This document shows positions 1 to 23,628 of a stretch of DNA of 24,898 nucleotides, in pieces; positions within the stretch are counted from its first letter, which is position 1; every line of letters begins with the position of its first letter. The stretch is from IMG/VR virus record IMGVR_UViG_2718218305_000013. One strand, 5' to 3'. Below the pieces are notes generated by a model, which was not told where the DNA came from, did not search any database, and was given only the letters and a program-made list of their open reading frames with translations. The stretch is from a virus. Taxonomy: Duplodnaviria; Heunggongvirae; Uroviricota; Caudoviricetes. The position numbers and the translations under genes were made by a program.

Positions 1-126
1 ATGTCTGCACCTGCATTGCCTGATGTCAGAACAGTGTTTTGATTAATTGCCAGGGTTACAATGGCACAAATGCGGCACAGGAGGAAACGTGGTGTATTTA
101 AATATGGGGTAACTACTTGATTTAAA

Positions 127-145
127 TGGTGCGATAATAGGAACC
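127..145 (-). repeat. Degenerate att-like copy of the tRNA-Thr 3' end; possible left boundary of the satellite
   Basis: tggtgcgataataggaacc matches the first 18 nt of the 13013-13058 tRNA-Thr fragment (tggtgccgataatagga) at 17/18 with a 1-nt gap; lies in an AT-rich non-coding leader. Confidence 0.3.
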
Positions 146-355
146 AATAATCGCCACCAACACAATGATTTTAATACATAAATTAAAATAGAAGATTTAA
201 ACTACACACACCCCTATACACATTGGTGAAGGCGTTCGCTTTCCGCGCATTCTCAAGGCAGAAAAAACTTTTTTTGGGGGAAAACTGTTCATACTACTCA
301 TTGTGTTTTTTTTCATTAATATTCAAAAAGATATGAAATTAACGATTGATAAGAA

Positions 356-376
356 GTGAACACTTTACTGTTCACC
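356..376. repeat. Inverted pair of P4 type I iteron-like octamers (GTGAACA...TGTTCACC), candidate alpha-binding site
   Basis: gtgaacactttactgttcacc read directly; TGTTCACC is, as I recall it, the iteron bound by P4 alpha in ori/crr. Confidence 0.35.
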
Positions 377-675
377 TTGACTGATTAATAAGTGCATAAA
401 AACCTAATTTTTGAGCACGGAAGGTATTTGTTCCTTACCCCATTTTTTCTCTTTAGTCCAGTACAACAAAAAATGCGCCCAACAGAAAACTGTTTTGAAT
501 TTAAATGCAATCGCTTTGTAGTGATTGTAACGTAAGTTGATTTGATGGGTGCGATTTTGTTTAGCGATAATGGTATGTTGTAAAAATCATTTCGTTGCAA
601 TAAAATTGCATCGCTACATTTTATAGACAATATCAATTAAATTTTAATACTCATTATTAATTTTGAGGCTAACAA

Positions 676-1632
676 GTGACTAGTTATTCAAACTTTTCCA
701 ATCAAATAAAAGAAACCATCAATAATAAATTCGATCATGAAATTCATGATTGGGACATTATAAAAAACTCAATCACAACTTTAATAAATAAAAATATCCA
801 TGGTGCAGGTAGAAATATCGTTGATTTTATAGATTTAGGTAACTGGGATTTTATTTCAAACTTTTCCTTTGATGACTCTACAAGAAGACTTGAATTAGAG
901 TGGCACCCCAATGATAAATTCCATATATATATTGAGTCCGTTGTGTTTGTCGAGTTTAATGACACTATATATGCTTTCTTAAAGGGATACTATCACAATC
1001 AGTTATCTCTAAATAGAATATATAATACAAAATGCTCTTCATGTTCATTTGAAAACTCAGGTTCTTATATGGTAGACGTTTATAGAACGGTTAAAAGAGT
1101 AAATGAGACAATCCAGACCCCAAATATAAATTGCTATACTACATGTATTTTAACAAGGCCCGCAAATGGTCATGTTACATCTACAGGCTTCTCACGAAAC
1201 CTCATGGATGCGATAAATATTTCATTAGCAGAGCACAAAATAGCCTCTTTACATAATGAAGTCATGAGTATTGAGGAATATGATCGTGATTCTTTACAAG
1301 AGAAAGGAAATACTGCCAGGAGATATTTAGAATATATTCTCATGCTTGTTAATATTCGTATAATGCATTTAAACAACGTTCAATACCAAGAGCAAATGCT
1401 AGGTAGTTTAGTTTCTGTTATTGAGGCTCTGGACTATGAACCATTAATGAAAAATGATGTTGAAATTACAAAGGACATCCTTAATGCTTGCAGCCACCAC
1501 GGGGGGGTTAGAATTGAAAAGAAAGATGTAATTTTTTCTTTGGAAGTTATTGAAAACTTAATTAAAGCCATAAAGAAAACCGACATAAATAAATTACAAC
1601 TCGATGGGATGTTTAAATCAATTCAAAAATAA
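676..1632 (+). CDS. Hypothetical protein, 318 aa, AT-rich cargo gene with no motif I recognise
   Basis: Uninterrupted ORF with GTG start and GAGG about 8 nt upstream; much lower GC than the adjacent alpha gene; convergent with alpha. Confidence 0.55.
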   Translation: MTSYSNFSNQIKETINNKFDHEIHDWDIIKNSITTLINKNIHGAGRNIVDFIDLGNWDFISNFSFDDSTRRLELEWHPNDKFHIYIESVVFVEFNDTIYAFLKGYYHNQLSLNRIYNTKCSSCSFENSGSYMVDVYRTVKRVNETIQTPNINCYTTCILTRPANGHVTSTGFSRNLMDAINISLAEHKIASLHNEVMSIEEYDRDSLQEKGNTARRYLEYILMLVNIRIMHLNNVQYQEQMLGSLVSVIEALDYEPLMKNDVEITKDILNACSHHGGVRIEKKDVIFSLEVIENLIKAIKKTDINKLQLDGMFKSIQK

Positions 1633-1735
1633 ACATCATCTAACAATGAATTAGATGCATTTTCCGCTGACGCCTTAGCATATAACTTTTAAATTTTATC
1701 GATATATATTTTGAGATAATTTCCTGTAGCGGATT

Positions 1736-1758
1736 TAAGACCGGCACAGCCGGTCTTA
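1736..1758. terminator. Hairpin between the convergent orf318 and alpha genes, possible bidirectional terminator
   Basis: 9-bp perfect inverted repeat taagaccgg/ccggtctta with 5-nt loop; T-rich tract on the plus side is weak. Confidence 0.35.
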
Positions 1759-1764
1759 GGTCAG

Positions 1765-4098
1765 TTATTTCGCTGCAAACTCATCGCATTTTGGCAACCA
1801 GTCAGCATTGCTTTCCTCTCTTAGGGCCAGATTAGTCTGCATTCCTTGATTGGTCCGTCGTTTCTCATACTGCAGCCCATATTCCTTGAGCATTAACGGT
1901 AGCCCCTTGCCAAACATGGTCAGACTGAGCGTATTTTTATAGCCGTTAGCCTCCATGTAGACCAGATAGGCATGGTAGAGGTAAGTTCGAGGCTGACGTG
2001 GAACAATATTAGCGTTCCCCATAAACATGCCCGTGGTGTCAGGTAGGACCTCAAGGTAGCCGCAAAAATCAAAAGCTGAATCAGCATCACGTTTGATGGT
2101 GAGCGCTTCATCGGAGTTCTGCTGTGACTGAAGCAATGTCCTGGCACTCATTGGGTCGCTGAAACGCTGCATAAGCTGGCGAACAATCACCGCTAGCTCA
2201 CTGGCAATTTTCTCTTTGAGCTGGGTATCGCGTTCCTCCGGGGCTATCTGGTCGGGGAAATGCAGGATCACCCTTCGGCGTGAAACTCCACCACTACGAT
2301 CAGTGAAGCGCATCGGATTATTGTTCACAGCCAGGATGACCGCCGGGATGTGGGTTGAATAGGCGTTCTGATATTTGGGATCAACGGATACCGCATCGCC
2401 GCCAGTGATGGCTTTTAGTCCGGCCCCGTCACCGCTCCACTTTTCCTGGTCGGGAAGTCGAATCAGTGAAAAACCTATTAACGCAGCTCGTTCTCTTGGC
2501 GACTCAAGCATTTCAATGGTTGCCGAGGTCGCGTTATCTTCACCCGCCAGCATGGTTGCTATTTCAGCAAGAATACTCTTTCCACTTCCGCCAGGGCCAG
2601 TGACCTCCAGAAACAGCTGCCAGTCATAACGGTTAGCCAGCACCATAAACAATGCAGCCAGAATAATGTCCCGTTTTTCAGGATTAAAACCTGCGGCACG
2701 ATCCAGCCAGCGCCAGAATGCCGGGGCATGGGTTTCCAGTGACTCACCGTCAACGGGCTGCGTGTAATCCACCTCGCACAGCGTACGTAACCAGTGCTTC
2801 TTATCGTGCGGGCTGAACAATCCTGTCCGGGTATCGAGCACACCGTTGCGAAATCCGATAAGTTGCCGCGCCGGATTCTGCTGTTGCGGAACGATCAGTT
2901 TGAGGGTTTCCACGAGAGACGCAATTTTCGCGGATGAAAAAGGTGCGTCGAGGCGCTGAAACAGCGCAGCGACATCACGGGCAAAATCGGCGTAATAGAT
3001 AACTTTCCAGGCCCCCGCCTCATAGCGTGAAAGGAGCTGCCCGTTCGGGTCTACTGCCAGTGAATTTTTATAGTGATCCACTACCCTCTGCGCTTTTTCG
3101 CTGACGCTCAGCGCGGTAAATTCAGCTTCGCTCATTGTGTCGAAGGGGCTGGCAACAGCTGGTTTTATTACTTCATGAATTGCATGCCGGGTGGCTTCTT
3201 CGCCGTTTTGCGTGAATGCATCGTTCCAGTCACCAAACACAGGCGGGAGCGCCATTGTGCAATTGCAGGCCCCGGTAACAGCTGCGCCCCTTGTTTGCCC
3301 CGCACCGTTGAGATCGCGGTCAGCAGCAATAATTATCTGGTGCGTTGGGTACTCACTGCAGGCAATGCTCGCCAGGGAAAGGAAATTGACGGACGAAAAG
3401 GCCACCATGACAGCATCGCCAGTCAGATAGTTGATAGTAAGTGCGGTGGCATATCCTTCCGCTATCCAGAGCCGTTTGGCTGCTTTGGCAGTACCTTCAA
3501 CCAGGTAAAAGGCATTCTTAACCTGACCGCCTTTAAGGAAGCATTTGCCCCCATTAGCGTTGATTAACTGCAGATTTACCAGCTCTCCATCTGCATACAA
3601 TGGAACGACAAGATCTCCCGCGCGAAATGCCACACCACCGACTTTATGCATAGCGGTTAATTCCCGGCAAGGCAGTGCAGGAAACCCTTTACTCGTCAGA
3701 TAGGCATTGCCAGTGGTCTGGCGGGACTTATCAAACAAACGGGCAGCCAGCACTGCTGCAGCTTTTCTCCCGTCCTCTTTTTCAGGAGAACCAGATTCAA
3801 GCATTCCCTGAGATACTGGCAGCAGGTTTCCGATAATGCCGTTTATTCTGTCTGCCGCTTCACTAATGCCTACATCCAGTACTTTACTTACAAGCGCCAG
3901 GCCATCACCTGCCCCGCACTGGTTACAGAACCACGTTCCCCGCCCTTCCTGGTCATCAAATCGAAAGCGGTCTTTCCCGGCACAGACCGGGCAGGGCTGG
4001 TGCCGATTTTTCAGTACATTTACGCCCAGCGCAGGTAAAATTCTTGACCAGTGACCCCGAGCTGCTTTCTCAGCCTGGCTAACTTTCATTCCTGACAT
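1765..4098 (-). CDS. alpha: P4 alpha-like primase/helicase (replication protein), 777 aa
   Basis: Start taken at internal ATG 4098 (MSGMKVSQ...), 13 nt downstream of the preceding gene; CPVCAGKDRFRF...CNQCG zinc-binding motif; Walker A GPGGSGKS; length and gene context match P4 alpha. Confidence 0.9.
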   Translation of the reverse strand: MSGMKVSQAEKAARGHWSRILPALGVNVLKNRHQPCPVCAGKDRFRFDDQEGRGTWFCNQCGAGDGLALVSKVLDVGISEAADRINGIIGNLLPVSQGMLESGSPEKEDGRKAAAVLAARLFDKSRQTTGNAYLTSKGFPALPCRELTAMHKVGGVAFRAGDLVVPLYADGELVNLQLINANGGKCFLKGGQVKNAFYLVEGTAKAAKRLWIAEGYATALTINYLTGDAVMVAFSSVNFLSLASIACSEYPTHQIIIAADRDLNGAGQTRGAAVTGACNCTMALPPVFGDWNDAFTQNGEEATRHAIHEVIKPAVASPFDTMSEAEFTALSVSEKAQRVVDHYKNSLAVDPNGQLLSRYEAGAWKVIYYADFARDVAALFQRLDAPFSSAKIASLVETLKLIVPQQQNPARQLIGFRNGVLDTRTGLFSPHDKKHWLRTLCEVDYTQPVDGESLETHAPAFWRWLDRAAGFNPEKRDIILAALFMVLANRYDWQLFLEVTGPGGSGKSILAEIATMLAGEDNATSATIEMLESPRERAALIGFSLIRLPDQEKWSGDGAGLKAITGGDAVSVDPKYQNAYSTHIPAVILAVNNNPMRFTDRSGGVSRRRVILHFPDQIAPEERDTQLKEKIASELAVIVRQLMQRFSDPMSARTLLQSQQNSDEALTIKRDADSAFDFCGYLEVLPDTTGMFMGNANIVPRQPRTYLYHAYLVYMEANGYKNTLSLTMFGKGLPLMLKEYGLQYEKRRTNQGMQTNLALREESNADWLPKCDEFAAK

Positions 4099-4111
4099 TG
4101 TGCGGCCCTCC

Positions 4112-4435
4112 TTAGTGCAGCGCTGGTTTGTTGAGGTGACGGGAACAAAGTTCATCCATGACCGTCATTCCGAGCAGTGAGAGAACCGGACAGGCTTTAA
4201 GCGGCCCCGACTCCATCAGATCCGAAAGCAACGCGCAGGCAATTTCCAGCCCTCTTTGCTGCCCATGCTGGCGCAGATAGAACCCTTCCAGCTCGCGGGC
4301 TATGGCATCTTCAAGTTCAGCGAGCGTCAGGCCGGAATAACGTTCCTGATGATTGCTTAGAGCCAGCCAGGCACAGGCAACGGCACGGCGATACAGAGCG
4401 GCACGAAGTGCCAGAAGAGATTCACAGCATATCAT
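4112..4435 (-). CDS. Hypothetical P4-like early-operon protein, 107 aa
   Basis: ATG at 4435 overlaps the upstream stop (TGATG); in an operon with alpha. Confidence 0.5.
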
Positions 4436-4656
4436 CAGGCCACCTCCGCATTCATCAGGTCGTCATGGCAGCGTTGCACCACTCCATCCAGTTGCTCTGT
4501 CATCAGATAAATGAGGGAAACCAGTTGTTCGCATTGGGCACCTGCTGGCTTTTCATAACAGTCCTGCAGGACTGCCATGCCAGTTACATACTCACCCACA
4601 TTGCGTAAATGTTTCAGCCTTACAACATCGTCGTAGGAAATCTCAAACTGGTTCAT
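4435..4656 (-). CDS. Hypothetical small protein, 73 aa
   Basis: ATG at 4656 overlaps the upstream gene's stop (ATGA); translationally coupled chain leading to alpha. Confidence 0.5.
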
Positions 4657-4847
4657 AGCGTCACCTCCCCGGCAGGCAGCCGTGCAGAAAGGGAGAGTAC
4701 ATAATCTCGGACTAGCAAACGGCGCGCGGAACGCTCATCGCAGGAGACAGTGCGAAGCATACAGATGCGGGGGTGAGTGTCAGCACGGCGGATTGCGGCA
4801 AACACAAAGACATATTGCGGGTGTGACGGGGTGAGGATTGTAGCCAT
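4653..4847 (-). CDS. Hypothetical small protein, 64 aa (only the 3' part of the 185-codon ORF 4653..5210)
   Basis: ATG verified at 4847 ([11 protein letters not shown]...); the upstream 120 codons of the long ORF look non-coding (GC-rich hairpins). Confidence 0.45.
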
Positions 4848-5206
4848 GATGGCAGCCTCCAATAAGTAGCGGTTATTGCTACCACCGGAAACGCCAATTT
4901 CACTGGTGGCAGCCCGAACGGGGTTGGCGTAACCGGCCTTATTGGAAACCGGCCAGCCCGAAGGCTGCCCCGCCCGGACTACCATTATCTCGATAGAACC
5001 ATGGTGTAAGCATAAACACCACAGCCCTGAAAATGGTTGTGCCTGAGCTACGACGTAAAAAAAGACGCAAGGGGCGTCAATTGTCGCCAATAAGTTATAC
5101 GGAACGCCAATTCCGGCTGCCGATTTTGCGACAGCGGAAAAACTATACCTGGAAATGACGACAGTAAGCAAGCCAGAATAAAGGTATTTAATGTATGCAG
5201 GTATCA

Positions 5207-5467
5207 TCATGCATCACATCCCCGCCCACGGGCGCTGATGCGGTCCGCCATCCATGCGCTGACCTCAGACTGTGCCCAGGCGACATTTTTACCGCCAAGC
5301 GGGATCTGCTTCGGAAACGCATCGCGGCTGATCAGGTCGTAAACGGTCGAACGGGACAACCCGCATAAGTGCATCACCTCAGGCAGGCGTAAAAATCGCT
5401 CATGATGGTTCGATACAGGAAATAATGGCGCAGCAGGAGCTGGCGCAGACACAGAAATATTACGCAT
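5207..5467 (-). CDS. alpA: AlpA-family (phage AlpA/Vis-like) HTH transcriptional regulator
   Basis: ERFLRLPEV...[11 protein letters not shown]...FPKQI motif typical of AlpA; ATG at 5467; sits at the head of the alpha operon. Confidence 0.75.
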
Positions 5468-6020
5468 TTATCTACCCTCTTTAATTTCCACAACAGTCCG
5501 GATGAATTTATCCGGGTTCAGGTAGTTCCTTATTATGTGTATATAAACCACCTGCGCACGCATTTTTTATTTAGCGTCACATATTGATTTTATGGAATTT
5601 AAAGCCCGATTAAACCATATAAAATGACATAATAAATACCATGCCTGCGGACTATAAATACAGGAGCATTAATAGGAACTACCATTCACCCAGGGTTTAC
5701 TATCCTATGGGTCATTGCACCTGATAGTGCTAACCCCACCGCCAATACAGCAAGGCAGTACAACTTCTACACGAGGCCTTGCATTGCAGGCCCCAATTTC
5801 CGGGCATATTTTTGAATCGCATCCAACTTATAAACATTGGGCCTGCATAAAAACCTTGATATTAAATAACATCACCTTAAATCGTAAAATATATCCGAAT
5901 GAATCCATAAAGAACCGGACAGATCTAGTTTTATAAAAATCAGTATGAAATGCAACACCATGGCCAGAGGCGAAAATGTTATTCCCCGGCAAAAACATGC
6001 AGTCTATTTATGTGCCTGTT

Positions 6021-6234
6021 GAATACTCCTGAATAAGGGTGAATAGTGGTGAGGAGCAAAAAACAAATAGCTACGAGGAATAAAAAAACCACCCATTATG
6101 AAAAAATACCATAAATAATTTTATTCCCATGTGAACAGTTATGAACAGTCGATGAATACTGCCATGCCAACCCTTCACCTTATAACCTTCTGTATTACCT
6201 ATTTTTTTTACCTAAGTGAATAGTAGTGAATAGT
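6021..6234. repeat. Cluster of at least 8 degenerate TGAA(T/C)A(G/C)T repeats, three containing GTGAACA; candidate satellite ori/crr
   Basis: Copies read near 6021, 6031, 6040, 6131, 6142, 6153, 6217 and 6226; non-coding region between the alpA operon and the sid operon. Confidence 0.4.
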
Positions 6235-6312
6235 TAAGGTAAGTCTGAAACAGCCTTAGTTAAACGAGGCCTTTTCTGGCTAGCCAAAAGAGGTCCGGGG
6301 CGGTTCAGTCTT

Positions 6313-6330
6313 TGTCTTGTCGCTCGCACA
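6313..6330 (+). promoter_or_regulatory. P2/P4-type late promoter activator site (TGT-N12-ACA) upstream of the sid operon
   Basis: tgtcttgtcgctcgcaca, about 70-90 nt upstream of the sid ATG at 6401; this dyad is the Ogr/Delta-dependent late-promoter element. Confidence 0.5.
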
Positions 6331-6400
6331 ATGGCGTTCAATGGCAGCTTTGTATGCATCACAGCACAATTGACACCACGACAAACCACTAGGTGCTGAC

Positions 6401-7153
6401 ATGACAATCCCAGAACAGAACAATAACCCGATCGTTGAAATTTCTATCCCTGTTTCGACGCAACAGGCGCTTGAGAAAGTGAATGCCACCAAATCTGCAT
6501 GGCTTGAAGCACGTCGTCAGCAAAAAGCGGCAGCGGATAATATTGCGACAATCCGCCAGCGCCGCGCTGAAATGGAAGCCACGACGAACGCCCTGAATGA
6601 GGAGTGGCGCACGCTATTTCGTGAAAGTCAGGGCGTAGTCTCAAAGGAAATGAAAAAACTGCGCACGGAAATTGCGCTGGGACGAGAAACGCTTGAGGAT
6701 TTTGATGAGCTGCTGGCGGCTCAGGAAAGCGAAAATGCACTTTTGCCGCAGGAGGCTGCGGAATTAGCCGGAAAGTATATCCACGCGCACGACACCCTTG
6801 TGGGTATTCGCGCAAAACAAATCTGGGAAGATTTTATGCAGTCGCATGGAAAAGCACTAATCCAGACACTAAGCCTGCTCAAATCAACAATGGGCAGGGA
6901 AGCCAGCGCAGTTGTCGGTGTGGTGCATTCAGTTAATGACCCGGACACACTGCTGAAAGATTTTATTCATAAACATATCACCAGACCGGCTCTGACTAAC
7001 GATGCGATGCCCGAACAGGACCCCGTGTTTAAACTGGCGGGAGTTGCCCCGGATTATGCGGCCCGTCTGGATTTCAGTAATAAACTCTCTCCAGCAGCTA
7101 TGCATAAAATGAAGGTTCGTCAGGAACGTGCTGAGAAGGAGAAAGCAGTATGA
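6401..7153 (+). CDS. sid: Sid-like capsid size-determination protein (putative), 250 aa
   Basis: First gene of the late operon, ATGA overlap with the next gene; size and position as P4 sid; shares KSAWLEARRQ / EDFMQSHGKAL-type segments with the Psu-like protein. Confidence 0.5.
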   Translation: MTIPEQNNNPIVEISIPVSTQQALEKVNATKSAWLEARRQQKAAADNIATIRQRRAEMEATTNALNEEWRTLFRESQGVVSKEMKKLRTEIALGRETLEDFDELLAAQESENALLPQEAAELAGKYIHAHDTLVGIRAKQIWEDFMQSHGKALIQTLSLLKSTMGREASAVVGVVHSVNDPDTLLKDFIHKHITRPALTNDAMPEQDPVFKLAGVAPDYAARLDFSNKLSPAAMHKMKVRQERAEKEKAV

Positions 7154-7701
7154 TGGCCCGAGTCACTCCAGACCAAGCGCTTATCAGTTTTAGAAATGCC
7201 CGTATTCTGTGGGCTGGACATAGTGAGAGCCGAAAAGCCGTTGAACAACAGATAGAATCACTCCTCACTGCCATGGAAAAACCAGCAGATTATGCTCGAC
7301 AGCTCGAATTACAGCGGGAACATCTGGATGTGCTGAAATGGCAAATTAACTGTGCTGCGCGCGAATGCATTTACTCGCAGCATCAACTGATGGAGGCCTG
7401 CACAGAAGACGCTCTCAGCAATTTTATGCAGGCGAATGGAGCAGCCCTGACATCTGCACTGGCTCCGTTCCTGAAGGGGCGCGGAGGGGTTGACGTTGCG
7501 TCCCGTATATTACGCAATGCTCTGGTTCGCCAGCTGGCAATAACACCGCCTGAAATTGCCGGGGATTATCGTATGATTCTGGATGAATCCGGTGTGATGC
7601 CTGACCCCATGATGGTTCGTGATTGCCAGAGCTCTTACACCCCTGCACAACAACTGCGCTTTCAGCAACGTCTGGATTACATTAACGGCATGCAGGAGTA
7701 A
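7150..7701 (+). CDS. psu: Psu-like polarity-suppression / capsid-decoration protein, 183 aa
   Basis: Segments KWQINCAA, FMQANGAALTSALAPFL and YTPAQQ resemble P4 Psu as I remember it; size matches. Confidence 0.65.
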   Translation: MMARVTPDQALISFRNARILWAGHSESRKAVEQQIESLLTAMEKPADYARQLELQREHLDVLKWQINCAARECIYSQHQLMEACTEDALSNFMQANGAALTSALAPFLKGRGGVDVASRILRNALVRQLAITPPEIAGDYRMILDESGVMPDPMMVRDCQSSYTPAQQLRFQQRLDYINGMQE

Positions 7702-7706
7702 TATTA

Positions 7707-7979
7707 ATGGCACTTAAATGTCCCGAATGCGGTACGACGGCACACGCCAGAACCTCCGCCTATGAAGCACCATCGGTTAAACGCTCATGGTATCAGTGCC
7801 AGAATCTTGAATGTTCCTACACATTTACCGCACTGGAAAGTGTGGATACGATAATCATGAAGCCCCGGCGCAATGAACAGGAATCAGAGAAAGCACAAAT
7901 GCCGGAAAAACAACAGCAAACTCTCAATCGCTATGGCTCCGCGTCAAAGCTGTCAAGCCGTCAGCAAATTCCTGTCTGA
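7707..7979 (+). CDS. delta: Ogr/Delta-family zinc-finger late-gene transcriptional activator, 90 aa
   Basis: MALKCPECGTTAHARTS...YQCQNLECSYTFTALESV is the classic Ogr/Delta Cys4 motif. Confidence 0.85.
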   Translation: MALKCPECGTTAHARTSAYEAPSVKRSWYQCQNLECSYTFTALESVDTIIMKPRRNEQESEKAQMPEKQQQTLNRYGSASKLSSRQQIPV

Positions 7980-8000
7980 TTAGCAAAAAAAGCCCACGTA

Positions 8001-8027
8001 ATCCCGGTCCAGTACTGGGATTTTTTA
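8001..8027 (+). terminator. Rho-independent terminator of the sid-psu-delta operon
   Basis: GC-rich hairpin (atcccggtccagtactgggat) followed by T6, 22 nt after the delta stop. Confidence 0.6.
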
Positions 8028-8332
8028 CGCCTTTTCCCTGGCTGGCCTGAGAGCGCATGAGTGCATGTCTATAGCGCATGAAAACGCATGATTCTCATGC
8101 ACCATTTTTGACGCGAAAGCCCTTGTGTGGTGGCTTCTGAGACGATTTGCGGAATGCATGAAAACCAGTCTGTTAAGCGAAGCGAGCAGGCGTGGGGGGC
8201 TGCGCGCGCTAAGGGGTTAGATTATAAAATATCAAACGCCGGTGAGATCCATTATTGTGGAACCACCCGAAGGAAGTGTAGAGGCGAAAGTACCCAAAAT
8301 AATTTTGCAAATTATTTAGAAATGAACTGAGC

Positions 8333-8358
8333 GCTCGAAACGAAATATAATTTCGAGC
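8333..8358 (-). terminator. Hairpin downstream of the cassette's last gene, candidate terminator
   Basis: 8-bp perfect stem gctcgaaa/tttcgagc about 30 nt beyond the stop at 8389; only a modest U-rich tail on the minus strand. Confidence 0.35.
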
Positions 8359-8388
8359 ACCCCAATTAGCAGTTATATTTTTAATGTA

Positions 8389-8955
8389 TTAAACAGGATA
8401 AAAACCAGAGCTTCCATTCTTATTTAAGTTATGGATTTTATTTGCATCATTAATTTTTATTTGGAACGTCGGACCTTTATTCTCAAGAATTACAATCTGG
8501 AAATTATAGTCCCTTTTGATTAATGCGTGATAAAATGAATCACTGAGACTGACGCTATTAACATCCGATAGAGAACCCCCTCTATCTTTATCAAAGTGCG
8601 TCACTAATGGACTATCAAGCACAACAAATCCAATGAATGGATTCCCTTTTCTTGATAAAAATTCCGCAAAGCAAATGGTAAATATAGCATGCATTACTGC
8701 ACGGGTACCTTTACCAAACATTCCTCGGCGTTTCCCATTGATATTAAAGTCATATGTATCTTCGTCAAATCGCACTTTGTTATCTTTAGAATTTTCAAAA
8801 TTTATATCATTCAAAAAGTCTTGCATCGCTATTTCTATATCATACAAATCAGCTACTGTTAAGGAGTCAAAGTCCTCGGCGGAGTATTTAAGTTCGTCAA
8901 CATCATCTTCTTTATCTTGTAATGAAGATAGAATGCTATGTTTTGTGTGATCCAT
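8389..8955 (-). CDS. Cassette gene F: C-terminal ABC/SMC-like ATPase head (Walker B region), 188 aa
   Basis: FIGFVVLDSPLVTHFD (Walker B-like hhhhDsP plus D-loop) preceded by a GKGTRAVMHAIF signature-like segment; ATG overlaps the E stop (TAATG); very AT-rich. Confidence 0.6.
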   Translation of the reverse strand: MDHTKHSILSSLQDKEDDVDELKYSAEDFDSLTVADLYDIEIAMQDFLNDINFENSKDNKVRFDEDTYDFNINGKRRGMFGKGTRAVMHAIFTICFAEFLSRKGNPFIGFVVLDSPLVTHFDKDRGGSLSDVNSVSLSDSFYHALIKRDYNFQIVILENKGPTFQIKINDANKIHNLNKNGSSGFYPV

Positions 8956-9545
8956 TAAAAGATTGTCTTTATATTCATAAAGTGATTCAAGAGATGAATG
9001 TATTGTTTTATATTTTTATCTTCTAACGTCTTAAAATCACTTTTTTCTGATTGATAAATTTCATTAACATCATTTTTTCTTAACATAATTAATTCATGTT
9101 CGCGAACATTAGATCCGATTGATTCAATTAATCCTTTCAGCTGGCTTTTGATTTTCAATTTTTCTGCATTACACGACAAAAAACAATCATCATATGATAT
9201 TTCATTTTCTTTTTTTTGCGGTGTATTACAGAACTCACAATAAATATCTGCAAAATTATTTAAATAGAAATTCGCCTGTGATACAACATCTATTCTTTGT
9301 AGATCTATAAAGTATTGGTCTTTAAGAAGACTAAATCTTTCAATGAGTAATGATAAGTATTTTTCCCTGTCACTGATTGAATATAATTCATCACTTAACT
9401 CTTTTAATAATTGCTTCTTATCATCAAGTGCATCAACAATACCTTTCAATATATCTTTCGATGATTCAATATCTTGCTCTACTTTCTCAAGTTCTCTTGA
9501 AACAATGACTTGATCATATTCAGGATAAATTAATTGCGCTTTCAA
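8955..9545 (-). CDS. Cassette gene E: coiled-coil segment of the SMC-like ATPase; in frame with D across a single TAA
   Basis: Heptad-rich, charged sequence; the track start is TTG with no usable RBS; the D frame continues into E across one in-frame TAA at 9576-9578. Confidence 0.5.
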   Translation of the reverse strand: MKAQLIYPEYDQVIVSRELEKVEQDIESSKDILKGIVDALDDKKQLLKELSDELYSISDREKYLSLLIERFSLLKDQYFIDLQRIDVVSQANFYLNNFADIYCEFCNTPQKKENEISYDDCFLSCNAEKLKIKSQLKGLIESIGSNVREHELIMLRKNDVNEIYQSEKSDFKTLEDKNIKQYIHLLNHFMNIKTIF

Positions 9546-9575
9546 TTCCTCATAAATATTTGCAATTTGATTTTT

Positions 9576-18234: not shown

Positions 18235-19028
18235 TATTTAGCCCTCACCAGAAAGTTAAATGCAATATTTCGCGGTCTGACTGCAACAAAATTCACACCA
18301 TCACCCACAGAGTTACTGGTGAAATTAAATCGTGAAAATCCTGGCTGATTTCCGGCGATGCCATCATGAAAGTTAATTGCGTGTCCCGCACCTTCGCCTA
18401 TATTCCCGGCAAACTGAGAAAAGTTTGTAGCTGCCTGCCAGCTTAATAATTCGCGACCACCGTCTGCACCTCGCCCGTCATCCCAGATACGAATGAAATC
18501 ACCGCGGGCTTCAGGTAATACCAGCGAAGGAAACACTTTCGCCAGCACAGGATAATCAGTGGCAGAGAATTTCGCGCCGTTGAACTTCAAAAACACCATA
18601 CAGGACCAGCTGTCGATTACAGTATTTGGCATTGCAGCGGACGGCCAGAAGAACGGAACGCCAATAGCTGGAGCACCTTCTCCCAAACCAAGGTTTTGAA
18701 GAGCCGTTTTCACCGTGCCGTCCGATTTGATATCGCCAAACGGATTCTTGCGGCTCAGGTATTCAACAGCAAACCCCGATCCCAGCAATTCAACAAAACC
18801 GGGCAGATCACCATTATCAAGCACATCCCGTTGCGTTTTATCACTTACAAACTGGGCCAGAGCTGCAGCAATAAAGCTGGCCTGCCGAATAACCTTATTG
18901 ACTTGCGCACTGGATGCTTTCCCTGCTGTAAATCCGGATATAAGCGCAGGCAACGCTTCCCATTCCTCCTGCGACATAACATTGGCATTTCGATCAGTTG
19001 CAAACGCTTTAAAGTCATTTTTCGCCAT
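18234..19028 (-). CDS. stf: Tail fibre protein (constant N-terminal part plus current variable C-terminal part), 264 aa from ATG 19028
   Basis: MAKNDFKAF... start overlaps the upstream stop (TGATG); crossover site in frame; followed by tfa. Confidence 0.7.
18677..18696. repeat. Right inversion crossover site inside stf (constant/variable boundary)
   Basis: cttctcccaaaccaaggttt; inverted partner of 16827-16846; encodes the NLGLGE segment of Stf. Confidence 0.6.
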
Positions 19029-19339
19029 CAGAGTAATACTCCCCATGCCCCTACATCAAAACCACTGATGAATTCGTTATCCATATCAAAACCAAAAAAT
19101 TTAGAGCCTTCCGATGGAGTTTCCACCGAAGGTGTTTCAATGCCCCCCGCCCATACCCCGGCGGCTTTTACTGTTAGATACCCCTGTTTAATTGCCGCAA
19201 TTAACTCACGCGATACATCTGAAATATCAGTATCAGGAAAGACCCAGACCGATATCGTCATGTCCTGGTTATCGATGTTGGCGATCCGACGCATCTGCTC
19301 ACGGTCAAAGTTAACCATCTGTGCGGCGATGTTTTTCAT
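19028..19339 (-). pseudogene. P: Chimeric ORF: first 21 codons of lambda P fused in frame to the C-terminal 82 codons of an unidentified (presumably tail/baseplate) gene
   Basis: MKNIAAQMVNFDREQMRRIAN is the lambda P N-terminus; sequence diverges after codon 21 at about 19276/19277, where the plus strand reads ATCGAT. Confidence 0.75.
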
Positions 19340-20258
19340 AAATCCACCCCGTAAATCCAGTCAGTGTTTGTCAGGTCGAGTTTTGGTTTGCTGGCTGTCA
19401 CGCCTGCCTGTTGCTTGTTACGGTTGATTTCGAGCTGGGTCCACTTGTCGCGGAGTTTGGCCGGACTCAGCACGTTACCGGACCAGAAGTTGTCCTGGCA
19501 GGCCCAGCGGAAAAGCACACACATATCGCGGTGGTTACGTCCGTCACGTTCACGCATCAGGCGGATATCGTTAGCCCACCCAGCAAAATTCGGTTTTCTG
19601 GCTGATGGCGCGATGGTCTTCACCATGTCAAACATCCACTCTGCGGCGGTCAGGTCTTCTGCTGTTCCCCACTTGCTGCCGCTCTGAATTGCAGCATCCG
19701 GTTTAACCACAGAAAGATCGTTTTCTGGCTGGTCAGAGGATTCGCCAGAATTCTCGGACGAATAATCTTTTCTTTTTTCTTTTGTAATAGTGTCTTTTGT
19801 GTCCCCCTGTTTTGAGGGATAGCAATCCCCCAATTTGAGGGATAGCAATCCCCCAATTTGAGGGATGTTTTATCCCTCGTTTTAGGGGATTTTCCCTCGT
19901 TTTGAGGGATACACCATTCTGAGATGTTTTTATTTGGTCCAAACATGCCGCCTTGCTGCTTGATAATATTCATTCTGACGAGTTCTAACTTGGCTTCATT
20001 GCACCGTTTGACAGGTAACTTTGTAATCTCGCTAAGTTGAGAATCGGTGATTCTGTCCATTGGTTTATTCCACCCATAGGTTTTACGCAGAATGGCAAGC
20101 AGCACTTTAAACTGTCGCTTGGTCAGATCTGCGCCCGAATAAGCCTCAAGCAGCATATTTGATAGTCTGGCGTAACCATCATCGAGATCTGCCACATTAC
20201 GCTCCTGTCCGGCAAAGTTACCTCTGCCGAAGTTGAGTATTTTTGCTGTATTTGTCAT
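19336..20258 (-). pseudogene. O: Lambda O replication initiator gene, frameshifted by a 23-bp tandem duplication in the iteron region
   Basis: ORF 19650..20258 = O residues 1-141 then out-of-frame tail; ORF 19336..19848 = remaining 158 residues; 141+158 = 299 = lambda O length; SLKLGDCYPS is encoded twice, 23 nt apart. Confidence 0.85.
19806..19912 (-). repeat. ori lambda iterons inside O, five copies here (one 23-bp unit duplicated)
   Basis: Minus-strand repeats tccctcaaaacgaggga / atcccctaaaacgaggga / atccctcaaattgggggattgct (twice) / atccctcaaaacaggggga. Confidence 0.8.
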
Positions 20259-20290
20259 AATGACTCCTGTTGATAGATCCAGTAATGACC

Positions 20291-20584
20291 TCAGAACTCC
20301 ATCTGGATTTGTTCAGAACGCTCGGTTGCCGCCGGGCGTTTTTTATTGGTGAGAATCGCAGCAACTTGTCGCGCCAATCGAGCCATGTCGTCGTCAACGC
20401 CCCCCCATTCAAGAACAGCAAGCAGCATTGAGAACTTTGGAATCCAGTCTCTCTTCCACCTGCTGATCTGCGACTTATCAACTCCCACAGCTTCCGCTGT
20501 CTTCTCAGTTCCAAGCATTGCGATTTTGTTAAGCAACGCACTCTCGATTCGTAGAGCCTCGTTGCGTTTGTTTGCACGAACCAT
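20291..20584 (-). CDS. cII: Lambda cII transcriptional activator, 97 aa
   Basis: MVRANKRNEALRIESALLNKIAMLGTEKTAEAVGVDKSQISRWKRDWIPKF... from ATG 20584. Confidence 0.9.
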   Translation of the reverse strand: MVRANKRNEALRIESALLNKIAMLGTEKTAEAVGVDKSQISRWKRDWIPKFSMLLAVLEWGGVDDDMARLARQVAAILTNKKRPAATERSEQIQMEF

Positions 20585-20912: not shown

Positions 20913-20929
20913 TTAGTACATGCAACCAT

Positions 20930-20993
20930 TATCACCGCCAGAGGTAAAGTAGTCAACACGCGCGGTGTTAGATATTTATCCCTTGCGGTGATA
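20930..20993. promoter_or_regulatory. OR1-OR2-OR3 operators with divergent PR/PRM promoters
   Basis: tatcaccgccagaggta (OR1), caacacgcgcggtgtta (OR2), tatcccttgcggtgata (OR3), between the cro and cI starts. Confidence 0.85.
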
Positions 20994-21000
20994 GATTTAA

Positions 21001-21717
<717 letters not shown>

Positions 21718-21844: not shown

Positions 21845-22196
21845 ATGAAGAAAGCAGCAATTTTAATTGATGCGGGTTTTTTCATGCAGCGTGTTCATGC
21901 TACGCATCGTAAACACTTCGCCGAGCATGAACTGACTGCGCAATGCATAATGAAAGTAATATGGTCAATGGTTCTTTCCCATCTTAATGGAAAACGTCAA
22001 TCACAAGAACGTAGGGAACCGCTTGAGCTTTATAGAATTTACTTCTATGACTGTCCACCACTCGACATTCAAACACGCCTTCCACTTCCTGAGCCTGGCA
22101 ATAAGACGCCTGGTCGCAAGAATTTCAAACTCGAAAAATCATATATTCTGAGAACGGAGCTGCATGAAGAGTTAAGAAAAACTCGAAAAACAGCCT
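21845..22196 (+). pseudogene. 5' fragment (117 codons) of an unknown gene in the rexAB position, interrupted by IS insertion; possible NYN/PIN-like N-terminus
   Basis: MKKAAILIDAGFF... start fits the first strand of NYN/PIN-like domains (weak); reading frame runs into the IS left end at 22197; not RexA by sequence. Confidence 0.5.
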
Positions 22197-22238
22197 TGAA
22201 CCGCCCCGGGTTTCCTGGAGAGTGTTTTATCTGTGAAC

Positions 22239-23129
22239 TCAGGCTGCCAGATCATCGTTTCCGATGGAAGCATAATAAGCTTTTTCTGCTTCTGCCGGAG
22301 GAGTATGGCCCAGCCTTCCCAGCAATCGTCGATTGTTATACCAGTCCACCCACGTTAGTGTGGCCAGTTCCACTTCTGCACGGTTTTTCCAGCTCTTACG
22401 GTGTATTACCTCCGCTTTGTAAAGACCATTGATGCTCTCAGCCATCGCGTTGTCATACGAGTCGCCTGTACTCCCTGTTGATGCCAGTAATCCGGCTTCT
22501 TTTAGTCGCTCCGTATAGGCCAGTGACACATACTGAGAGCCTTTATCGCTGTGATGGATGGTGCCAGACGGACGACGGGCCCACAACGCCTGCTCCAGCG
22601 CATCCAGCACGAATGTCGTTTCCATAGACGATGAGACCCGCCACCCCACGATGTATCCGGCAAACACATCAATGATAAACGCCACATAGACGAAGCCCTG
22701 CCATGTGCTGACGTAAGTAAAATCAGCCACCCACAGCTGGTCAGGTCGTTCTGCCACGAACTGACGGTTTACGCGGTCGCCTGCGGCAACGGCTTTCCGG
22801 CTGATGGTCGTACGGACCTTTTTACCCCGGAGAACACCGGCAAGTCCCATAACCGCCATGAGACGTGCCACTGTACATCTGGCCACCCTGATTCCTTCCC
22901 GTAACAACTGACGCCAGACTTTACGCACACCGTACACCTGATGATTTTCATCGTATACGCGCTGTATCTCTCTCTTCAGCCAGTCGTCGTGCTGCGCACG
23001 GGCACTGCGTTTATCCGGATGATGTCGCTGTTGCTGACAATGGTAATACGTTGACGGGGCAATATGCAGTTCGCTGCATACCGGTCCGACCCCGTACTGC
23101 TCACGCAGCTTATCCAGCAGTGGCATCAT
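22239..23129 (-). CDS. IS3-family transposase OrfB (DDE catalytic domain), 296 aa
   Basis: DDE-type integrase core (WVADFTYV...HHSDKGSQY...[20 protein letters not shown]); -1 frame relative to orfA. Confidence 0.85.
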
Positions 23130-23452
23130 TTTTTCCAGAGGCGGTCGAACTCCGCCTTCGCAAAATAAGCGGAAGCCTGGCGAAGGATATCGTTACTGCG
23201 GCGCAGTTCACGATTTTCACGTTCCAGCTCTTTCAGACGCTGACGTTCAGCGCTGGTGAGCCCACCATCACCGCCCCCGGTATCCCGCTCATGCTGGCGA
23301 ACCCAGACACGCAGAGTCTCCGGCGTACAGCCAATCTTTGGGGCAATGGAACAAATTGCCGCCCACTGTGAGTCATATTCATCCTGACTTTCCAGAACCA
23401 TACGAATCGCCCGCTGACGGACTTCGGGGGAAAAACGAGTATTTTTAGTCAT
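23126..23452 (-). CDS. IS3-family transposase OrfA (HTH/leucine-zipper part), 108 aa
   Basis: [22 protein letters not shown]...[33 protein letters not shown] is the typical IS629/IS3 OrfA; ends in AAAAAATGA, overlapping the orfB start. Confidence 0.85.
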
Positions 23453-23628
23453 CCTGTTTACCTCTTTCTCAGGGAGTTTAGTCTCCAGGAAACCCGGGGC
23501 GGTTCACCAATTGTATTTATTTTAAAATTAATAGGTGCAACTCACTAAACAACGCAATTCTGATCTCTCGATCACCTCCCAAGCCACACAACCCTGCAAA
23601 AAATAAATCTATATAAAAAACATACAGA

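Follow-up and report, generated by a model that had tools for sequence, protein, structure and literature searches.

The nearest described relative of the locus considered here is the locus itself, since the O and P pseudogenes of the cryptic prophage Sp1 (CP-933H) of Escherichia coli O157:H7, annotated in strain Sakai as ECs_0277 and ECs_0279, are identical to it. At the annotation level the O/P lesion has been known, as a partial gene or a pseudogene, since the first O157 genomes (EDL933, Sakai); the database names at the locus include "Partial O replication protein for prophage CP-933H," and RefSeq labels the duplicated gene "replication protein, frameshifted." In our literature search we found described neither the nature of this lesion as an iteron duplication nor its polymorphism among strains. 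According to Asadulghani et al. (2009; PMC2669165), Sp1 has a repressor and an antirepressor, is defective in integration, lacks excision, and is scored as defective ("D") in replication, all its remaining functions being scored as absent; in microarrays, moreover, mitomycin C induced the Sp1 early genes without DNA amplification, which induction was qualified as of "significance unknown" (PMC2669165). Landstorfer et al. (2014; PMC4048457), for their part, found that antibiotics raised the expression of the CP-933H tail-fiber genes ~32- to 64-fold (log2 fold change 5.3–6.0), which genes lie downstream of the truncated O and P.

Four other systems invite comparison. The Stx phages 933W and P27 have six iterons, also as the result of a duplication inside the O coding sequence (PMC7466680); but whereas that insert—39 bp with two iterons, in frame, adding 13 amino acids at the ITN1/2 end—leaves O working (PMC7466680), Sp1 has gained 23 bp with a single iteron, which stands between ITN3 and ITN4 at the opposite end of the array, is out of frame, and breaks O. 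The RK- mutants of an engineered cryptic lambda are non-excisable imm-rep fragments whose initiation was lost by mutation of O, P, or ori (PMC3349717); by analogy, Sp1 looks like a natural counterpart of those prophages, although the RK- mutants were laboratory-selected by thermal induction, whereas Sp1 lacks P independently of the O lesion. As in contingency loci, the copy number of a tandem repeat in Sp1 toggles a reading frame and changes recurrently among close relatives; in contrast to those loci, the unit is of 23 bp, only two copies occur, no phenotype is attached, and the prophage is dead. Finally, from the inhibition element composed of oop and iterons, Sp1 retains pO-oop-tO and ITN3–4 intact, but lacks the multicopy state.

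The DNA that we analyzed—hereafter the window, at its full length of 24,898 nucleotides (IMG/VR record IMGVR_UViG_2718218305_000013)—derives from the thrW region of E. coli O157:H7 and contains Sp1 in reverse orientation (Table 1). In alignments the window and the thrW region of Sakai, which run in opposite orientations, shared 99.99% identity, the sole large difference being a 1312-bp IS629/IS1203 at 22193–23504; and the 1001 nt around the duplication were 100% identical to the window in at least 40 genomes, Sakai and EDL933 included. In the annotation of Sakai, Sp1 is a "lambda-like phage" remnant of ~10.6 kb with the order int (pseudogene), cI, cro, cII, O (pseudogene), and P (pseudogene), beyond which last gene come tail-fiber genes and the Pin invertase and then the P4-like prophage Sp2; ren, nin, Q, and the lysis and head genes are missing. 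The IS629/IS1203 of the window, of the IS3 family, comprises orfA (23126–23452) and orfB (22239–23129), with an ALIL frameshift pseudoknot at 23055–23171. Sp2 occupies positions 1–13058 and contains Rfam matches to the C4 antisense RNA (4902–4989) and to isrK (5058–5135); 46 nt repeating the 3' end of thrW (13013–13058) mark its junction with Sp1. The tail-fiber segment at ~16822–18695, beside the Pin gene, occurs in both orientations among genomes and is an invertible host-range segment, active or recently active; the prophage around that segment contains no other virion genes. As an ancestor, the O157:H7 ancestor-like strain O55:H7 CB9615 was rejected: its thrW holds a different, apparently complete lambdoid prophage with an intact 900-nt O, an intact 702-nt P, and a different repressor, whose similarity to Sp1 is limited to cII-O-P' (96%).

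Table 1. Features of the Sp1 immunity and replication region, with coordinates as positions in the window.
Feature	Coordinates	Strand	Source
P'::DUF2612 in-frame fusion ORF, 103 aa (Sakai ECs_0279)	19028..19339	-	
P remnant, first 64 nt, identical to lambda and phage 21	19276..19339	-	
O pseudogene, 923 nt (900 + 23) (Sakai ECs_0277)	19336..20258	-	
Native C-terminal 158 codons of O (P-interacting part) plus stop; own start signal not expected	19336..19848	-	
202-aa product of the frameshifted O (native for 141 residues, out of frame for the last 61)	19650..20258	-	
AT-rich unwinding region of ori lambda, 41 nt, lambda-identical	19761..19801	-	
ITN4, exact lambda match	19803..19820	-	
Tandem array: 23-nt unit in two exact copies, followed by 10 nt of a third (iteron 3 + spacer doubled)	19811..19866	-	Tandem Repeats Finder
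ITN3, copy two (extra, fifth iteron)	19826..19843	-	
ITN3, copy one in the O sense	19849..19866	-	
ITN2, exact lambda match	19873..19890	-	
ITN1 (ATCCCTCAAAACGAGGGA), exact lambda match	19893..19910	-	
pO promoter of oop	20233-20261		
oop antisense RNA, 77 nt, 100% lambda identity	20269..20345	+	Sequence match
cII, 97 aa	20291..20584	-	ORF list and annotation
tO terminator of oop	20315-20342		
cro, 66 aa	20703..20903	-	ORF list and annotation
pR-like promoter (TTGACT-17-GATAAT), driving cro-cII-O'	20928..20956	-	
cI repressor, 237 aa; HTH_3 and Peptidase_S24 (self-cleavage) domains both complete	21004..21717	+	Domain search

A preliminary description of this DNA, made from the sequence alone, had claimed that a 23-bp tandem duplication inside ori lambda created a fifth iteron and frameshifted O, all three of which points were borne out by alignment and by the mapping of the iterons onto the annotated lambda iterons. 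The unit TTTGAGGGATAGCAATCCCCCAA occurs at only two places in the window, 19811 and 19834, in tandem (19811–19833 and 19834–19856 in the phase originally described), and Tandem Repeats Finder assigned the array a period of 23, 2.4 copies, 100% matches, and a score of 112. The 0.4 extra copy is a 10-nt continuation of the repeat, ATCCCTCAAA in the O sense, which continuation renders the endpoints of the duplication ambiguous within 10 nt. The duplicated unit is iteron 3 plus the 5-nt spacer; and the five resulting iterons—ITN1, ITN2, ITN3 twice, and ITN4—preserve the lambda-type organization, with 18-bp inverted-repeat O-binding sites within O and the AT-rich region right after the last of them. 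In the alignment with lambda, phage 21, and the Stx phage P27, one 23-nt insertion is the sole change in the window. The proposed one-copy progenitor agreed with the references, in that both lambda and phage 21 have a single copy, which in lambda is accompanied by an intact 299-aa O. Since the native iterons are mutually different, while the two 23-mers are identical, a chance origin of the duplicate copies is excluded. The single-stranded ori region exhibited a strong iteron-hairpin folding (z = -6.8), which folding is compatible with slippage.

Because 23 is not divisible by three, the insertion between lambda-identical iterons shifts the frame of O after codon 141, so that the initiator gene is broken inside its own origin, as had been proposed; and the two parts of the reading frame do add up to the expected 299 codons (141 + 158) upon removal of one copy. 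With one copy deleted in silico, we obtained a 900-nt O having 100% nucleotide identity with phage 21 O, whose 299-aa product was 100% lambda O at the protein level, with 15 synonymous differences from lambda; apart from the 23-bp duplication, then, no change has accumulated in O. The uninterrupted 299-codon frame, including the P-interacting C-terminus, is not present in the window, but is found in the 13 single-copy strains described below. In the 202-aa product, the Phage_rep_O domain (PF04492) is complete (residues 22–115, E = 1.9e-36, profile positions 2–95 of 95), whereas the 61-aa out-of-frame tail gave no conservation signal; a comparison by sequence of the O fragment with solved structures yielded no match. 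Recoding around the frameshift was considered and dropped, no recognized slippery-site motif having been seen by eye. P, for its part, was indeed truncated, as previously stated: homology with lambda P stops after 64 nt, at a deletion junction between positions 19275 and 19276, with P being gone from codon 22 onward. At that junction the frame continues from P codon 21 into the final ~82 codons of a gene for a DUF2612 tail or baseplate protein, 226 aa long elsewhere in E. coli. One illegitimate deletion or join ties the lambda immunity-replication block to an unrelated tail-fiber/invertase module.

The suggestion that the N-terminal domain of O could still be made is plausible, inasmuch as the domain is complete and the pR, cro, cII, and O start are intact. 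Given the cI with its S24 domain, the intact pR, cro, and cII, and the induction already published, the O fragment is very probably transcribed upon SOS induction. In an Rfam scan of the window, the oop family was not matched. The description of the prophage as replication-dead agrees with the published lack of Sp1 amplification (PMC2669165).

For the counting of the alleles, plain BLAST identity and coverage were unsuitable, in that single-copy and duplicated alleles match each other in two pieces. The duplication was therefore counted with a 61-nt query across the ITN3–ITN3 junction at a strict E-value, and the single-copy allele with a query containing only 20 nt of upstream flank, so that duplicated targets lose coverage. 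In a survey of 5,426 complete E. coli genomes, the duplication junction was found in 190 genomes (191 records), the strains being O157:H7-type throughout among the matches listed. The Sp1-specific P'/DUF2612 junction appeared in 204 records, comprising 191 duplicated copies (94%) and 13 single-copy ones with an intact O (~6%), which two numbers add up exactly to the total. The single-copy strains are 272, JEONG-1266, Rafaela_II, SS52, ECP19-798, 3-5-1, Al Ain, 08-3918, Z1812, 26_141088, UTME-4, PNUSAE151637, and 7386WT; in all 13, RefSeq has an intact 900-nt "replication protein" beside the same truncated P, and over 3.5 kb the single-copy Sp1 of CP073591 differs from the window in the 23 nt alone, with 0 mismatches. 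The main text of the O157 structural-variation paper does not mention Z1812. By the junction queries, the median number of Sp1 and duplication places per genome was one; two genomes had two places each for both junctions, which doubling may reflect the segmental duplication of Sp1. A 46.9-kb record bearing the label of a plasmid holds one copy of Sp1; examples of such unusual records are NZ_CP089270.1 and NZ_CP044147.1. The duplication junction was found in none of 50,697 phage records, nor in the GTDB species representatives, nor in metagenome contigs. In IMG/VR, seven contigs contained the duplication, six of them being Sp1 and the other a hybrid (L005) to be discussed below. In the assembly collection, 476 index blocks include contigs that encode the exact 202-aa product; in the 24 blocks with the longest contigs, those encoding this product or the P' fusion were all Sp1, the single-copy CP073591 among them.

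The split between the two alleles was tested on local markers, namely the IS629 insertions plus the SNPs and indels in the 3.7 kb around ori. Three distinct IS629 insertions (IS-A, IS-B, and IS-C) lie between cI and int, and both alleles occurred on the IS-less, IS-A, and IS-B backgrounds. Among the IS-less strains, Sakai and EDL933 are duplicated, whereas UTME-4, ECP19-798, Al Ain, JEONG-1266, 26_141088, and PNUSAE151637 are single-copy; with IS-A, EC4115, SS17, 2009C-3378, and 7386Nal are duplicated and SS52, 272, 08-3918, 3-5-1, Rafaela_II, and 7386WT single-copy; with IS-B, the duplicated allele is present in this window and two others, and the single copy in Z1812. Each local SNP haplotype group likewise holds both alleles. 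The copy number is accordingly homoplastic; and, because both alleles occur on each IS or haplotype background, that number would, if no recombination intervened, have changed at least about five times, which figure is of the same order as the roughly ten point or indel variants in those 3.7 kb. Most economically, the pattern can be read as that of an ancestral duplication repeatedly lost through its 33-nt direct repeat, a direction—loss instead of repeated gain—that we infer from general knowledge of the instability of tandem repeats. Since the single-copy alleles keep the Sp1-type flanking SNPs, a conversion from the O of another prophage seems unlikely, and a simple repeat loss is favored.

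Certain individual strains deserve separate mention. Within the lettuce isolate 7386, the 7386WT sequence is single-copy, whereas 7386Nal and F7386 are duplicated, and the 170 nt downstream in 7386WT include three private mismatches; its single copy reflects either a true reversion during laboratory passage of the lineage or a fault of the assembly, such that at least this one of the single-copy calls may be erroneous. The small gene between cI and int has received at least three independent IS insertions in O157, IS-B being that of the window. Three IS-less strains carry IS-A-lineage markers plus an additional C at the point where IS-A inserts, which nucleotide may be the footprint of an excision.

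In draft sequences, we also encountered hybrids. The contig L005 (IMGVR_UViG_2541047164_000016), at 11985–13112, has the backbone of an Stx2 phage but an ori patch of the Sp1 type, along with private errors, among them an extra A at codon 3, and its sequence ends 145 nt upstream of O; four draft-genome proteins (P0010, P0005, P0002, and P0004) join an Stx-phage-type O—one six-iteron type included—to the 23-bp duplication of Sp1. The draft genomes that encode hybrid O proteins include O157:H7 K5418. No match to the L005 O region at 99% identity or above was found in complete genomes, and no hybrid of an Stx-type O with the Sp1 duplication was found among complete genomes or phage records; the counts, moreover, leave no room for extra copies beyond the two double-place genomes. 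L005 and the hybrid draft proteins are probably collapsed-repeat assembly chimeras, although they may alternatively have arisen by gene conversion into Stx prophages.

We consider it highly probable that the lesion originated as a slipped-strand (or unequal-exchange) duplication of 23 bp within the ori lambda of the degraded Sp1/CP-933H at thrW. The 10-nt sequence ATCCCTCAAA would provide the substrate, opening as it does both ITN3 and ITN4 of lambda, 23 nt apart; misalignment of those repeats during replication, or an unequal exchange between them, would generate precisely a 23-bp duplication, and a misalignment between the 10-nt starts of the two iterons would account for the circumstance that the repeat runs 10 nt past two full units. 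Slippage, as had been presumed in the preliminary description, is accordingly the natural mechanism to propose for a segment bordered by the 10-nt direct repeat of the left halves of ITN3 and ITN4. The hallmarks of a slippage-type duplication are present: perfect head-to-tail copies, a short direct repeat in the single-copy allele, and a single-copy allele in otherwise identical DNA (the phage 21 O and the Sp1 of CP073591). The added 23 bp would then have cost O its frame in a prophage that either was, or became, replication-dead anyway, with P and all the late genes deleted and int a pseudogene, for which reason the lesion would be a mutation in a pseudogene with no demonstrated function. The duplicated state, with its 33-nt direct repeat, would be unstable; within O157:H7 it has disappeared on several occasions (or, with less likelihood, arisen anew), with the loss of one copy leaving the O frame intact again in ~6% of the complete genomes.

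Alternative explanations were weighed against this slippage in a dead prophage. The repeat might be an error of sequencing or of assembly, an idea encouraged by the repetitive nature of an origin made of iterons and by the occurrence of chimeric O genes in draft assemblies (L005; P0010 and P0005); but the presence of the 61-nt junction in 191 complete-genome records from many laboratories and platforms, the identity over 1001 nt in at least 40 genomes including Sakai and EDL933, and the 476 assembly-collection blocks with contigs for the exact 202-aa product make an artefact scarcely credible, and the concern voiced on this point in the preliminary description can be put aside. A selective origin may also be envisaged: a working O, with P supplied by co-resident lambda-type prophages, would fire a non-excisable chromosomal ori, so that the duplication could be a natural RK- survivor mutation that spared the cell from the firing of the trapped origin. 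Although its int is a pseudogene, Sp1 retains pR, a complete ori, and a cI that is SOS-cleavable; its early genes are induced by mitomycin C, and a lambda-type P is encoded by other O157 prophages (PMC2669165); replicative killing, with RK- survivors mutated in ori-lambda initiation, is known for a non-excisable cryptic lambda prophage (PMC3349717); and the duplicated allele predominates (191 vs 13). Nevertheless, with P deleted in cis, O alone cannot load DnaB; cells having P from other prophages lyse anyway, which outcome would make selection for inactivation weak; the 13 strains with an intact O are viable isolates; and ancestry explains the predominance of the duplicated allele equally well. 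We therefore view selected inactivation as unlikely.

A retained function is still harder to sustain. The truncated O, or else the five-iteron ori together with oop, might hinder the replication of lambda-type phages—be they superinfecting phages or the resident Stx prophages—through origin occupation or titration, in favor of which notion one could cite the complete Phage_rep_O domain in the 202-aa product, the SOS-inducible transcription (PMC2669165, PMC4048457), the iteron type shared by the O proteins of co-resident prophages, and the integrity of oop, pO, tO, and ITN3–4, the elements that a plasmid needed in order to inhibit rep-lambda phages in the work of Hayes et al. (2012; PMC3349717). 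That inhibition, however, was obtained with high-copy plasmids, whereas Sp1 is present in one chromosomal copy; Hayes et al. (2012; PMC3349717) concluded that handcuffing or titration of iterons cannot explain the phenotype; and in Sakai, itself a five-iteron strain, the replication of Sp5 and Sp15 is good (PMC2669165). In view of these three considerations, a single chromosomal Sp1 copy is unlikely to be a sink for O. The proposal of the preliminary description that Sp1 might titrate O-binding sites also runs against the finding that multicopy O/ori plasmids devoid of oop did not inhibit lambda (PMC3349717). Maintenance by selection is further opposed by the unconserved 61-aa tail and by the free reversion of the allele, all of which leaves a functional remnant highly improbable. 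Only marginally less remote, to our mind, is the notion that the 23-bp repeat reversibly turns ON and OFF the initiator of a lambda origin that is trapped and SOS-inducible. If that were true, ON cells, with one copy and an intact O, could borrow P from co-resident lambda-type prophages and would fire ori in situ, with regional amplification or replicative killing as the consequence, whereas in OFF cells the O fragment, able to bind origins, could damp the replication of the resident Stx1-type prophages with the same iterons; the copy number would then tune prophage cross-talk, and possibly the Shiga toxin output, in O157:H7 populations.

Returning to the slippage duplication, we consider that the observation in the preliminary description was accurate and its interpretation essentially right, and that the feature itself is an ordinary one, a duplication by slippage located in a pseudogene, the cryptic prophage around it being already well described. 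What is new here is the repeated reversion of that duplication within O157:H7. The analysis furnishes an explanation at the base-pair level for the "partial" O of a well-known cryptic prophage, along with a natural instance of iteron gain by slippage in ori lambda, which process, when in frame, plausibly gave rise to the six-iteron origins of the Stx phages. Because of the repeated reversion, the duplication serves poorly as a phylogenetic marker and counsels caution in typing schemes and in the calling of pseudogenes; and some 6% of the O157:H7 strains possess an intact, inducible O beside a complete origin in a non-excisable element.
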